Below, piece after piece: positions 1-42,630 of a DNA stretch of 53,646 nucleotides (positions are counted from its first letter, which is position 1; every line of letters starts with the position of its first letter). Below the pieces are notes generated by a model. That model did no database searches and had not been told where the DNA came from. It saw nothing but the letters and a program-made list of their open reading frames with translations. Origin of the DNA: Parcubacteria bacterium C7867-004. GTDB taxonomy: Bacteria > Patescibacteriota > Minisyncoccia > Phycocordibacterales > Phycocordibacteraceae. The position numbers and the translations under genes were made by a program. The stretch is taken from contig LFCN01000004.1 in NCBI GenBank assembly GCA_001189075.1, positions 1 to 53,646 on the forward strand, given 5' to 3'.

Positions 1-607
1 AACTCAAAGGAATAGACGGGGACTCGCACAAGCGGTGGATCATGTGGCTTAATTCGTCGATAAGCGAAGAACCTTACCAGGGCTAGAAACCAAGCTGCAT
101 CCCACCCGAAAGGGAGGGAGCCTTCGAGGGTGCTTGGCAGGTGATGCATGGTCGTCGTCAGTTCGTGGCTTGAGCTGTTCCCTTCAGTGGGGTAACGAAC
201 GCAACCCCCGTTGTCTGTTATATATTTCAGGCGAGACTGCCCCCTCACGGGGGAGGAAGGTGGGGATGACGCCAGATCAGCATGTCCCTTGATGCCCTGG
301 GCTGCACACGTGATACAATGGCCGGTACAGAAGGACGCAATACGGTAACGTGGAGCAAATCCCAAAAACCGGCCCCAGTACGGATCGAGGTCTGCAATCG
401 ACCTCGTGAAGCCGGAATCGCTAGTAATCGTGGGTCAGCAATACCACGGTGAATACGTTCTCGAGTCTTGTACTCACCGCCCGTCAACTCAAGGAAGCTG
501 GGGGTACCCGAAATCTTGCAGTTTGCAGGACTACGGTAAATTCAGTGACAGGGAGTAAGTCGTAACAAGGCACGGCTAGCGGAAGCTGGTCGTGGAACAT
601 ATCCAAT
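1..607 (+). rRNA. rrs: 16S rRNA gene, 3' ~600 nt (5' part outside window; starts at about E. coli position 907)
   Basis: Conserved 16S blocks occur in the correct order: AACTCAAAGGAAT.GACGGGG (1-22), GCATGGTCGTCGTCAG (~146), TTGTACTCACCGCCCGTCA (~468), AAGTCGTAACAAGG (~557) and the helix-45 GGAA loop (581-584). The sequence between blocks is highly divergent. The 3' end is placed by alignment to the canonical tail, +/-5 nt. Confidence 0.95.
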
Positions 608-649
608 CGGAACGAAGTTAGCCCGAAAGGCGCTTCTCCGGTCGATCTT

Positions 650-725: not shown

Positions 726-887
726 ATAGGGGACATGGCATTTATCCCTAAATAATGCACGGACGCCGGAAAAACGTACCGGTGGAGACTTGGAAGCCAC
801 ATATGAGCTTCTAAGGCTTCGAATAGGCGGAACACAAGAGTGCGCATGTTAGAAACCGTTTTCATTTTTGAACTAGATGCCGCAAGA

Positions 888-4838: not shown

Positions 4839-4878
4839 GTTCACACCCTCACCTACAACATAGAAAGGAGGTGTTCTT

Positions 4879-5628
4879 TTGACCGAGGCACTTCAAGACG
4901 CCTCATGGGGCGGAGACGCCTTTATTGCAGTCAGTGAGGCTCGCTTAAAGGCCATAGACGAGCGAGCGACCGGAAACCTGCTCTCATCGCATACGGTCAT
5001 CCTGTCCGGCTATATCACCGGCATGAACCAGATCAGAGCCGGCTACGGGCGCCTGTCTCGCTCCGAAAAGCTCAAGCAGCTTTTGATGTGGGGCGCTGCT
5101 GCGGAGTGGCACTCGTGGCACCTCAGGGCCAATCGCGAGCAGCTCGACCATAACCAGCTGAACGTGCTCGCAACCTGGTTGCTCGCGACTGCGAGCTTGC
5201 CTCGGTGCCGTTGGCGTGCGCCGCTTGCGCTCAGGTACGCTCGGCTGGGGCAAGCTGCAGCTAAAGGAGTGGATGTTCTTCCGCACCAACGGGCTCTCGC
5301 GTACCTCTTATCTGCGCGGGCAGTCATGCGCAGCAAGTACGGGGATAAGAGCGCTGTCCGGAGGCTGATGGGGAAAGCTCACAGTCTCGAGGCGGAGATC
5401 CGTGCGGAAGCGAATCAACCGTACGGGCTCCGCCAACTGGTCCGCATCTTCAAAGGAGAGGGCGAGCTCCATTTTGAGCTGGGCGACGTTGACCGGGCCT
5501 ACTACCTCTTCAAGCTCGCGCTCGCTGTGGCAGAAGGGGAAGCGGATACCAAGAGCCAAGCACGCCAGATCGAGCTTCTCCTGTTGTCGGACGCGTTCGT
5601 TGAGCATCGGAGAAAAGACGAGCGGTGA
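4879..5628 (+). CDS. Hypothetical all-helical protein (TPR-like C-terminus?), TTG start
   Basis: 249-aa ORF with GGAGG (4867-4871) 7 nt upstream of the TTG. It has its own promoter-like element and a terminator downstream. I recognise no family. Confidence 0.6.
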   Translation: MTEALQDASWGGDAFIAVSEARLKAIDERATGNLLSSHTVILSGYITGMNQIRAGYGRLSRSEKLKQLLMWGAAAEWHSWHLRANREQLDHNQLNVLATWLLATASLPRCRWRAPLALRYARLGQAAAKGVDVLPHQRALAYLLSARAVMRSKYGDKSAVRRLMGKAHSLEAEIRAEANQPYGLRQLVRIFKGEGELHFELGDVDRAYYLFKLALAVAEGEADTKSQARQIELLLLSDAFVEHRRKDER

Positions 5629-7665: not shown

Positions 7666-7748
7666 GGCGGCTTGCGATAGACAATTGAAGTCAGGAGAGT
7701 ACGATATCGCACACAGGTGTAACCCTGGTGTTCATTAGGGAGTTGATC

Positions 7749-7969: not shown

Positions 7970-7975
7970 TATAAT
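7970..7975 (+). promoter_or_regulatory. Consensus -10 box TATAAT, 7 nt upstream of ATG 7983
   Basis: TATAAT then CCTTTCT then ATG. Confidence 0.5.
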
Positions 7976-7982
7976 CCTTTCT

Positions 7983-9788
7983 ATGTACAACCCCGAGCGC
8001 GTAACCTATTTCGCTGCAACTGATGCGCGAGGGAAGCGCGTGCCCTTCGGCATCAAGGCGAAGGATCGCAGTCGCCACATGTACGTCATCGGGAAGACGG
8101 GTATGGGTAAGTCGACCATGCTCGAGAACATGGCGATCCAGGATATCCGGAACGGAGAAGGTATGGCCTTCATCGATCCGCACGGAAGCGCCGTTGAGAA
8201 GCTGCTCGATTTCATACCGCCCGAGCGCATAAAGGACGTCGTATATTTCGCGCCGTTCGATCTCGCACAGCCAATCGCGTTCAACGTGATGGAGGACGTC
8301 GGGTACGACAAGCGGCATCTCGTGGTGTCGGGACTCATGGCCACCTTCAAGAAGATCTGGGTGGATGCGTGGTCCGCCCGCATGGAATACATCCTCTCGA
8401 ACACGCTGCTCGCGCTCCTTGAGTATCCTGACTCGACCCTGCTCGGGGTGAACCGCATGTACACCGACAAGAACTACCGGAAGAAGGTGGTTGAGAACGT
8501 GAAGGATCCGGTGGTGAAGGATTTCTGGACGAAGGAGTTCGCGAATTACGGCGATCGGTATACGCAGGAAGCGACTCCGGCGATTCAGAACAAGATCGGG
8601 CAGTTCACGAGCAACCCGCTCATACGCAACATCATCGGCCAGCCGCACTCTACCTTCGACATCCGAGATCTGATGGATTCGCGCAAGATCCTGCTTGTGA
8701 ACCTCTCGAAGGGGCTGGTGGGCGATACCAATATGCAGCTCCTGGGGTCCATGATAACGACGCGCATCTTCCTCGGCGCGATGAGCCGCGCAAATCTTCC
8801 GGCACACGAGCTCGCAAAAGCACCGAGCTTCTATTTCTATGTCGACGAGTTCCAGAACTTCGCGAACGAGAGCTTCTCGGAAATTCTCTCCGAAGCCCGA
8901 AAGTATCAGCTGAACCTGATCATCGCGCACCAGTACGTTGCCCAAATGGAAGAGGAAGTACAGGCTGCCGTTTTTGGTAACGTCGGTACGACGGTCTCGT
9001 TCCGAGTCGGTCCGCTCGATGCCGAGCTTCTTGAGAAAGTCTTCATGCCGAAGTTCCTGCAGGAGGATCTCGTGAACCTGGGGTACACACAGATTTACCT
9101 TTCACTCATGATCGATGGAGTCGGTTCTCAGCCGTTCTCAGCGCTCACCATTCCGCCTATCGAGCAGCCCGCTCGTTCCTATCGCCAGGAGGTGATCGAG
9201 ATGTCGCGCCTGCAGTTCGCGCCGGCCGGACGCGAAGGTATCGAGGAATCGATCCTTACGGAACTCTCGCTCTCCGATGTCGAAGAGCAGGCTGCACGTG
9301 CACGGCAGTCAGAAGAGGATAAGAACAAGGCAGCACGTCCGATGACTTCCACACAGGCTCGGCCCGCTCCTCGTCGCGATGATCGTCCGGCTCCGCGAGA
9401 AGAGCGACCAGCTCCAAGAGAGGATAGGGGACCGGTTCGTCATGCTGAGCGTCCATCGTCTCGCCCTGCGCCGGCTCGGGAAGAACGCGCTCAACCGCAA
9501 GCAGCCACGAAGACCGCGGACGACCTTAAGGCAATTCTGCGTGCGACGATCGCAGGAGCTGCGAAGGAAACGCAGAAGAAGGAGCAGGGAAAGGAACAGA
9601 ACCTCAGGCATGCGCTCTCAGATGTGATCCGCAATACCGAGCCGGAACCTCGTCCAAGGATCCCGAAGCCGCAGGAGCCCCAGTCTCGAATGGAAGAGCG
9701 TCCGCACCCGCCCGCACCGCGCGAAGAGCCACGCCCCATATTTGAAGTGCCTGAGGAGACGCTGCGATCTTTGTTCAAGGACGTGTAA
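7983..9788 (+). CDS. Soluble VirD4/TraG/TraD-like (type IV coupling-protein-like) P-loop ATPase with a charged low-complexity tail
   Basis: Walker A VIGKTGMGKST, Walker B FYFYVDEFQNF, and RKYQLNLIIAHQY. There is no N-terminal TM helix. The last ~170 aa are Pro/Arg/Glu-rich with RPAPRE-type repeats. A GTG at 7962 is an alternative start. Confidence 0.82.
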   Translation: MYNPERVTYFAATDARGKRVPFGIKAKDRSRHMYVIGKTGMGKSTMLENMAIQDIRNGEGMAFIDPHGSAVEKLLDFIPPERIKDVVYFAPFDLAQPIAFNVMEDVGYDKRHLVVSGLMATFKKIWVDAWSARMEYILSNTLLALLEYPDSTLLGVNRMYTDKNYRKKVVENVKDPVVKDFWTKEFANYGDRYTQEATPAIQNKIGQFTSNPLIRNIIGQPHSTFDIRDLMDSRKILLVNLSKGLVGDTNMQLLGSMITTRIFLGAMSRANLPAHELAKAPSFYFYVDEFQNFANESFSEILSEARKYQLNLIIAHQYVAQMEEEVQAAVFGNVGTTVSFRVGPLDAELLEKVFMPKFLQEDLVNLGYTQIYLSLMIDGVGSQPFSALTIPPIEQPARSYRQEVIEMSRLQFAPAGREGIEESILTELSLSDVEEQAARARQSEEDKNKAARPMTSTQARPAPRRDDRPAPREERPAPREDRGPVRHAERPSSRPAPAREERAQPQAATKTADDLKAILRATIAGAAKETQKKEQGKEQNLRHALSDVIRNTEPEPRPRIPKPQEPQSRMEERPHPPAPREEPRPIFEVPEETLRSLFKDV

Positions 9789-30436: not shown

Positions 30437-30484
30437 GAATGCCGCTGTTCCCATTCAACATAGGTATGAGAAAGGAAGGACTCC

Positions 30485-41742: not shown

Positions 41743-41748
41743 TATAAT
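41743..41748 (+). promoter_or_regulatory. Consensus -10 box TATAAT, 6 nt upstream of ATG 41755
   Basis: TATAAT then CTAAGG then ATG. Confidence 0.5.
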
Positions 41749-41754
41749 CTAAGG

Positions 41755-42630
41755 ATGGATGAGATAACTATTGGAGACAAGACGTACATATCGTCAAAGC
41801 AAGCTGCAAAGATTACTGGATACGCAAAGGACTATATCGGTCAGTTGTGCAGGGAAGGGCGAGTTGAGGCAAGGTTGGTTGGTAGAAATTGGTATGTGCT
41901 CGATTCCAGCATCCGAGAGCATCGTTTCGGGGTAGAAAACGAGGAAAAGACCCCTGCAAAGGCTCAGCCGGTATCTTCGGTCGAGGCATCATCGAGAGTC
42001 ACATCAGAATGGGAGCGTCCGCAGTACAAGGCTGAAGTACCATCTATGGTCCCCACGTTCGTGCCTAAACCTGCTCCGACGGTCGCTCCTGCTGAAATGC
42101 AGTCCGCATGGCGCCAATGGTTCGAGAATAAGCCTCAAGATACCCTTCCTGATGGAAGCGACGACTTCACCGAGGAGTATCTTCCGGCTGTGGTGCCTGA
42201 AGAGAAGCCTGTAGAACCTGTCGAAGAAACATATAGCGTCCCAGTGGTGCGCGTTACAGAACCAGAACAGCCGGTATACCGTGAAGAAATCCTTCAAGAC
42301 GAGCGTGTAGAGCTTCACAAGTCCTATGCAAGCCGTGAGACGGGGGAAGTCGTACCAGAAGCAAGCAGCATGGTCGTTGATCTCACGCACACTGAGCCTA
42401 ACCAAAAAGCGCGTGTTCGTAAGGCAAAGAGCCCAAAGCCTCCTCGAAATCAATCGAATCTTGTCGCAAACGCGATCCTGTTGGTAGTTACCCTAGTTGC
42501 AGTACTTACGGCAATAGTTGGAACAGGTTACGCCGAGAAGCTACTTTCAGGGACAAGTGTGGATTTCGGAGCACAAAAAGGAATCATTGATTTTCTGGGT
42601 GGAGAGAGCACGTATAAAAAAGCTAATTAA
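41755..42630 (+). CDS. Membrane-tethered Xis/MerR-type HTH protein (HTH, ~185-aa Pro/Glu-rich linker, one TM helix, ~25-aa ectotail)
   Basis: YISSKQAAKITGYAKDYIGQLCREGRVEARLVGRNWYVLDSSI fits the excisionase-type HTH pattern. TM helix LVANAILLVVTLVAVLTAIVGTG lies near the C-terminus. Confidence 0.75.
   Translation: MDEITIGDKTYISSKQAAKITGYAKDYIGQLCREGRVEARLVGRNWYVLDSSIREHRFGVENEEKTPAKAQPVSSVEASSRVTSEWERPQYKAEVPSMVPTFVPKPAPTVAPAEMQSAWRQWFENKPQDTLPDGSDDFTEEYLPAVVPEEKPVEPVEETYSVPVVRVTEPEQPVYREEILQDERVELHKSYASRETGEVVPEASSMVVDLTHTEPNQKARVRKAKSPKPPRNQSNLVANAILLVVTLVAVLTAIVGTGYAEKLLSGTSVDFGAQKGIIDFLGGESTYKKAN

Follow-up and report, generated by a model that had tools for sequence, protein, structure and literature searches.

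The window analysed here comprises 53,646 nt of Parcubacteria bacterium C7867-004 (contig LFCN01000004.1, forward strand) and opens inside a 16S rRNA gene, whose 3′ part occupies positions 1–607 of the plus strand and whose 3′ tail is the subject of this analysis. Contact between the Shine-Dalgarno (SD) sequence of an mRNA and its anti-SD counterpart in 16S rRNA is the textbook way in which bacteria locate start codons, and few stretches of RNA are as highly conserved as the anti-SD. A preliminary description of the window had claimed that helix 45 of this gene is normal and that the CCUCC core of the anti-SD is gone from the tail behind it; both claims are borne out. In particular, cmscan aligns window positions 1–607 to positions 898–1533 of the Rfam model of bacterial small-subunit (SSU) rRNA, RF00177, with 542.1 bits against a threshold of 50, and the alignment reaches the last position of the model with full posterior probability and zero insertions. 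Helix 45 with its GGAA loop is intact at 571–594 (+), as CACGGCTAGC-GGAA-GCTGGTCGTG, both in the sequence as read and in the alignment; its 10 pairs are formed in 100% of cells across 94 distinct relatives. The tail that follows at 594–607 (+), GGAACATATCCAAT, reads GGAACAUAUCCAAU where the RF00177 consensus has GGAUCACCUCCUUU, and the consensus CCUCC columns hold UAUCC at 600–604. By its score and by the reach of its 3′ end the gene belongs to RF00177; the CCUCC core, a consensus feature on which the score does not depend, is absent from this end-to-end match, which confirms the observation of a 16S tail without an anti-SD.

The assembly comprises 778,726 bp in 6 contigs, with a completeness rating of 100%. 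The 5′ part of a 16S rRNA gene sits at the end of another contig, C3 (model positions 1–381, 306.6 bits by cmscan); since this 5′ piece ends one contig and the 3′ piece opens the contig of the window, there is one rrs copy in the genome, split by the assembly. Six RNA runs each hold a small share of the query words; the four that were mapped gave short contigs from other organisms, mostly 85–95% alike and covering conserved parts of the 16S rRNA, none of which extends past position ~623, and the trailer itself is non-conserved.

Translation start signals

The preliminary description held that loss of the anti-SD would imply SD-independent initiation throughout the genome. Start signals were compared across 726 genes covering 89% of the genome, called with our own script as open reading frames (ORFs) of at least 100 aa under a first-ATG rule. 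An SD core (GGAG, GAGG or AGGA at −20 to −4) precedes 88 of 714 first ATGs (12%) versus 479 of 2861 internal in-frame ATGs, the control set (17%), and is not enriched. On 50 kb of Escherichia coli K-12, the identical script finds SD cores before 27 of 55 starts (49%) versus 10 of 162 internal ATGs (6%). A count of strong SDs before any candidate start gives 8–15% for each set alike, most of it chance matches within ORFs, and does not separate the sets.

The words that are enriched upstream of starts are promoter-like or contain stop codons, and no others are. In particular, 60 of 714 genes have a TATA[AC]T whose first base lies at −15 to −12, versus 2 of 2861 internal ATGs, and the looser TAnnnT lies at −15 to −11 in 202 of 718 genes (28%) versus 73 of 2861 controls (2.6%). 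The position of the box peaks sharply at −12, its last base lying 6–9 nt from the ATG, far above background; 6–9 nt is also the usual distance from a −10 box to the transcription start. Moreover, in sequences aligned on the box, a TG stands two bases upstream in 84 of 207 genes versus 86 of 2434 controls, and a −35-like hexamer stands at a spacing of 16–18 nt in 24 of 207 versus 69 of 2434. An extended −10 promoter that ends 6–9 nt before the ATG would be the signature of leaderless mRNAs. For example, the window has TATACT 6 nt before the ATG of a 173-aa ORF (1137–1151, +; read from the sequence), TATAAT 7 nt before the ATG of a 601-aa ORF (7970–7985, +) and TATAAT 6 nt before the ATG of a 291-aa ORF (41743–41757, +).

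The TAnnnT element at −12 could instead be a translational signal on leadered mRNAs, such as an AU-rich binding site for ribosomal protein S1, and this genome does encode a 377-aa S1-domain protein; yet the upstream TG and the −35-like hexamers, in the proportions given above, are both features of sigma-70 promoters, and the spacing to the ATG is that expected between a −10 box and a transcription start, which together make a translational role unlikely. It is very unlikely that an SD-like mechanism has been kept by re-tuning, with the new AUAUCC tail pairing to a new mRNA motif such as GGAUAU. Conservation of the tail within the genus could mean selection, but the tail varies between the families of the order, GGATAT at −20 to −4 is found at 1 of 714 starts versus 12 of 2861 controls, its 5-mers are found at 34 of 714 versus 109 of 2861, and neither count amounts to an enrichment among the upstream words, which are limited to the promoter-like and stop-codon-containing ones.

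No purine-rich motif is seen at genes that lack a box, and the RNA around their starts is predicted to fold more weakly than around internal ATGs (−6.0 vs −8.4 kcal/mol); the mean folding energy near starts is −5.1 to −6.0 kcal/mol. Further, of 245 junctions between close neighbours on the same strand, 28 are overlaps of 4 nt and 8 are overlaps of 1 nt, while in 36 the genes stand 2–3 nt apart, and such tight junctions suggest translational coupling.

Within the window itself, the preliminary description had found almost no SD among some 45 genes. The scarcity holds, with 3 genes carrying a core at −20 to −4, but a crude gene call gives 38 ORFs of at least 100 aa in the window and not some 45. 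The three SD-like sites that it listed all exist. The site at 4867–4871 is part of AAAGGAGGTG, which lies 5 nt before a TTG at 4879 that opens a 249-aa ORF (4864–5628 with its SD, +; no Pfam family and a weak NsdA-like NCBIfam match); this SD may be a chance match, the ORF may be a recent import, or it may not be a gene. GGGAG at 7738–7742 is present, but stands only before an internal ATG of a 61-aa ORF, and the site at 30469–30479 precedes the TTG of a 178-aa ORF, which has minus-strand ORFs overlapping it. Overall, SD-independent initiation across the genome is supported as the predicted mode, because neither SD cores nor GGATAT are enriched and the promoter signature at start codons is strong.

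The tail among relatives

Among 29 loci fetched from the same genus and order, CCUCC is absent in 27 of 27 readable tails. Tails of the genus are ACAUAUCC-like, and those of other families of the order are AUAUUUCAA-like or UUAAUUCAA-like. A wider scan for the helix-45 variant of this lineage, with one genome per species, returned at least 119 stretches; among the matches listed, CCTCC occurs in 0 of the 118 readable tails, and the records are labelled Parcubacteria group, Paceibacterota or Paceibacteria, Kaiser-, Nomura-, Taylor-, Zambryski-, Adler- and Lloydbacteria, with many carrying one submitter's label, ‘uncultured Candidatus Saccharibacteria’. The genome is placed in the Parcubacteria/Paceibacteria by its exact helix-45 variant and its tail, which are common to the records so labelled, and by its small size of 0.78 Mb.

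Across the class, a 16S 3′ marker was found in 177 of 301 sampled genomes and is followed by CCTCC at the canonical distance in 71; the remaining ~106 lack the canonical tail, and the 32 non-canonical tails that were read directly all have no CCUCC at that place. In a phylum sample of 401 genomes, 213 have the marker with CCTCC at the canonical distance, including 0 of the 7 genomes of the own family and order. The loss is thus a real trait, as first described, but it is not confined to this genome: it marks a large subgroup of Parcubacteria/Paceibacteria and, at the level of lineages, has already been published. Of the Parcubacteria 16S genes studied by Tsurumaki et al. (2022, RNA 28:1041; PMC9297842), only 48% had a detected CCTCCT motif, and the authors report that the Parcubacteria lineages without an anti-SD overlap with a group that lacks ribosomal protein uL1, an overlap whose meaning they term unclear. 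A search for uL1 (PF00687) gave no match in this genome, and all 14 of 14 control genomes matched; on both traits the genome fits the anti-SD-less, uL1-less subgroup described in those passages.

These comparisons leave hardly any credit to an artefact, in which the contig start is chimeric or misassembled, or the gene is an rRNA pseudogene in decay, and the tail of the functional 16S rRNA is normal. The gene is split across contig ends, a profile search of the own genome gave no RF00177 match and, in one relative of the same genus, G024, a canonical tail stands on an additional contig; against this, the same tail recurs in 27 of 27 independently assembled relatives, CCTCC is missing from all 118 species with this helix 45 among the matches listed, and helix 45 and the remaining gene score as normal SSU rRNA. 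The large contig of G024 (locus L006) also has the lineage-type tail; its canonical copy lies on a separate contig (C6) with a different helix 45, is counted among the 71 class matches and is probably a contaminant in the bin. A displaced tail, with an insertion parting helix 45 from a true CCUCC further downstream, has next to no chance of being correct: rRNA genes of the candidate phyla radiation (CPR) often have insertions, several relatives hold ~1 kb extra in this part of the gene and one (L098) has TGGATCACCTCCC ~380 nt past helix 45, but RF00177 aligns without insertion to its last position, any CCTCC within 500 nt downstream occurs in only 25 of 143 loci and at scattered places (CACCTCCT in 3), and the trailer in the window, where a CCUCC tail was looked for and none was found, runs on to the helix strand at 821–838.

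The TGGATCACCTCCC of L098 lies in the spacer of a relative whose own tail is degenerate; the match is too long for likely chance and may be a relic of the canonical tail. The extra sequence of several relatives, ~0.8–1.5 kb inside the 3′ third of the gene as judged from split BLAST matches, is of the intron-like kind known from CPR rRNA genes, and their 16S genes span 2.2–4.2 kb. In one 1.1-Mb genome of the same phylum (G422), the pattern for the 16S 3′ end has 33 matches (11 forward, 22 reverse), far above the number expected.

The start signals of the class were compared in 20 kb from each of 20 CCUCC-keeping and 20 CCUCC-less genomes. In the keepers, SD cores precede 38 of 354 starts versus 225 of 1315 internal ATGs and the −10 box 91 of 354 versus 90 of 1315; in the CCUCC-less genomes, the counts are 38 of 315 versus 164 of 1418 for SD cores and 101 of 315 versus 73 of 1418 for the box. 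SD use is clear (38–59% of starts) in 6 of 20 genomes from the phylum's other classes and not in the rest, and these six indicate that the pipeline detects SD use where it is present. By these counts, class members whose CCUCC survives are SD-blind as well, without SD enrichment before their genes, so SD-blindness predates the disappearance of the anti-SD, and it is widespread in the phylum.

rpsU, Era and the precursor hairpin

Of 301 class genomes, 230 have ORFs resembling ribosomal protein bS21, the product of rpsU; the region upstream was read in 70. Among genomes that keep CCUCC (12 families), 23 of 27 have an SD core before rpsU, mostly AAAGGAGGTG-like and 5–10 nt before the start; where CCUCC is lost, a core is found in 3 of 30, and 22 of these 30 tails were read and verified. 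Where the tail could not be assigned, 5 of 13 have a core, and 4 of these 5 belong to families whose other members keep CCUCC. The contrast between keepers and losers is large, though the genomes, being related, are not independent. The own bS21-like ORF has 86 aa and scores 21 bits, below the cut-off; it has no SD and is preceded by a box-like element. It lies directly upstream of ybeY, the gene of the nuclease that matures the 16S 3′ end (contig C1:343685–344417, minus strand), and YbeY is present in this genome. The combination of an unused anti-SD with a strong SD before rpsU, as in Bacteroidia, is not seen in this genome and is seen in its CCUCC-keeping class relatives (23 of 27).

In other bacteria the GTPase Era binds GAUCACCUCC. 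A profile search gave no match to Era in this genome, and only 1 of 301 class genomes has a match above the cut-off. Era as the reason why some lineages of the class keep CCUCC was considered and rejected, as it is missing from nearly all class genomes, keepers included.

The place of the former anti-SD may have a second role in the precursor of the 16S rRNA. At 602–611 (+), the window has a small hairpin of 3 bp, UCC-AAUC-GGA (602–604 with 609–611), whose 5′ arm is the former anti-SD place, whose 3′ arm is made of the first trailer bases and whose arms co-vary in the class. In CCUCC-keeping genomes, the tail continues as CACCUCCUUUCUA(A/G)GGAG, giving the same hairpin as CCUCC...GGAG, and the Firmicutes spacer starts similarly. 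In RNAfold predictions, the anti-SD stretch (CUCC or UCCUU) is paired to the bases that open the trailer in 13 of 20 CCUCC-keeping genomes of the class and in 19 of 20 from other classes, the twentieth pairing CACCU with AGGUG. In CCUCC-less lineages, both arms have changed together, giving UUCA/UGAA, CUCA/UGAG, GUCA/UGAC and UCCA/UGGA, as well as AUCC/GGAU, AUUUCU/AGAAAU and CUCUUUU/AAAAGAG. As MAFFT left the loops of 142 tails ungapped, pairs were counted with a covariance model; in its alignment of 100 of the 142 loci, each of the 4 pairs varies in both of its bases and 94.6% of cells form a pair. A stem of at least 4 bp forms with the own 3′ arm in 128 of 197 tails (65%) versus 1573 of 3940 combinations with arms of other types (40%); when 3′ parts were exchanged at random between all tails, the outcome was close to the real one, as most tails share arms. 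Because its stem has only 3 bp in this genome, a hairpin between the former anti-SD and the trailer is rated as moderately supported by the sequence comparisons.

Since the trailer runs on to the leader–trailer helix, the hairpin probably belongs to the 16S precursor and would serve maturation of the 3′ end. The 3′ strand of that helix at 821–838 (+) is the exact complement of the leader sequence CTTGTGTTCCGCCTATTC, which sits upstream of the 16S 5′ end on contig C3, and an exact complement of at least 10 nt with compensating changes is found in 22 of 45 relatives. A pairing of the tail's GGAAC with the conserved leader motif was considered and rejected, as this motif pairs with the trailer at 821–838 instead. 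The window thus has a 3′ strand like that of the usual bacterial pre-16S rRNA, with compensating changes in relatives; unlike the usual arrangement, the 16S unit stands alone, with a terminator-like hairpin, a separate tRNA-Ile and no 23S rRNA gene downstream in the window.

In particular, a terminator-like hairpin (888–933) followed by TTTTT (together 888–938, +; read from the sequence) lies between the 16S unit and the gene for tRNA-Ile (GAT) at 995–1070 (+; ARAGORN, with 75.5 bits to the Rfam tRNA model). The hairpin is long and perfect and no 23S rRNA gene follows in the window, and the 16S gene seems to be a transcription unit of its own; 23S-like pieces stand at the heads of contigs C1 and C3. 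Contigs C4 and C5 share their first 80 bases and C1 and C5 their last 80, which points to a repeat or an unresolved branch of the assembly. At the other end of the window, an ORF of ~2,920 aa with a TTG start runs from 43317 (+) and occupies the last fifth.

Interpretation and known systems

The explanation that accounts best for these results, and that we consider likely, is a true loss of CCUCC in the only 16S gene of a ~0.78-Mb CPR genome of the Parcubacteria/Paceibacteria, together with SD-independent starts and drift of the tail. Many mRNAs would be leaderless, their −10 box lying so near the ATG that transcription would start at this codon or right beside it; most genes within operons overlap or abut the preceding stop codon and would be reached by re-initiation, and the remaining starts would lie in weakly structured RNA. 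Such SD-free initiation would be common to the whole class, CCUCC-keepers included. In the keepers, the sole gene found with a strong SD is rpsU, as in Bacteroidia, and the Era GTPase is missing from almost the whole class. In the lineage of this genome, the SD of rpsU would have gone too, and the tail, left without a sequence-specific client, would have drifted for that reason. What would have been retained is the pairing of the former anti-SD place with the first trailer bases, in the precursor hairpin.

A broader account, which we favour only slightly over its contrary, is that the Paceibacteria are a second SD-blind lineage, independent of the Bacteroidia, in which rpsU was the last client of the anti-SD. 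The order to which this genome belongs would then represent the end state of a joint loss, reached with Era already gone, and, with the tail free to drift, compensating changes would have exposed an older constraint, imposed by the precursor hairpin for 16S 3′ maturation and not by mRNA binding.

Several points weigh against this interpretation. The gene calls are crude, and under a first-ATG rule some start codons will be wrong. About 70% of genes have no −10 box at the start, and how these initiate can only be inferred. The ORF at 4879–5628 has a textbook SD in a genome without an anti-SD. The genome-wide profile search returned no RF00177 match in this genome, though cmscan detects both pieces; the match was probably missed because the gene is split between contigs. 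For rpsU there are exceptions on both sides, with 4 of 27 CCUCC-keepers lacking an SD core and 3 of 30 CCUCC-less genomes having one, and the relatives are not independent, so that the contrast is one of ~12 versus ~19 families and not of 57 cases. An alignment fitted to a hairpin model leans towards structure, the contrast between own and foreign arms is modest, and the hairpin of this genome has only 3 bp. There is also no contrast in Era within the class; because the keepers lack Era too, its loss can only be permissive. Further, the functional account as a whole is drawn from DNA.

If the interpretation holds, a large, abundant and uncultured lineage without an anti-SD offers a natural experiment on the other constraints that act on the 16S tail. 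It suggests an order of events in which general SD use and Era were lost first, the anti-SD survived only beside an rpsU SD, and both then vanished together. It also lends support, from a phylum unrelated to the Bacteroidia, to the model in which autoregulation of rpsU keeps the anti-SD alive. In practice, gene finders that rely on SD sequences will misplace starts in these genomes, where the −10 box at the start can serve as an anchor, and primers or probes for the 16S 3′ end will miss the group.

The closest published counterpart is the Parcubacteria subgroup of Tsurumaki et al. (PMC9297842): lineage and feature are the same, and this genome, too, lacks both the anti-SD and uL1. The passages of that paper on the subgroup are silent on translation start, rpsU and a trailer hairpin. 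A literature search of main texts returned no paper that connects leaderless mRNAs or an SD before rpsU with this group, and a leaderless SD-blind class, the disappearance of the anti-SD together with the SD of rpsU, the absence of Era and the co-varying precursor hairpin were not found in print.

The Bacteroidia are the nearest functional parallel. In Flavobacterium johnsoniae (NAR 2026, PMC13000453), the anti-SD is described as needed for translation of rpsU, which has a strong SD, and as needed also for 16S maturation, possibly via Era. As in that account, genes of the class generally lack SDs, and its CCUCC-keeping members share the strong rpsU SD (23 of 27). The Bacteroidia keep their anti-SD, sequestered by bS21, bS18 and bS6 (PMC13000453), whereas the lineage of this genome has neither the anti-SD nor the rpsU SD. 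They also have Era, as seen in a control genome, and the class does not, save for 1 of 301 genomes.

Two further systems share part of the pattern. Actinobacteria and Deinococcus are rich in leaderless mRNAs and, as here, have the −10 box close to the start codon, at a constant spacing; in contrast, they keep a canonical anti-SD and an SD on many genes, and this genome has neither. Mammalian mitochondrial ribosomes have an SSU rRNA without an anti-SD and translate mRNAs that are leaderless or nearly so, but their evolutionary origin is different. The likeness to mitochondria extends to ribosomal proteins, in that the losses among CPR bacteria are described as resembling the mitochondrial ones (PMC9297842).

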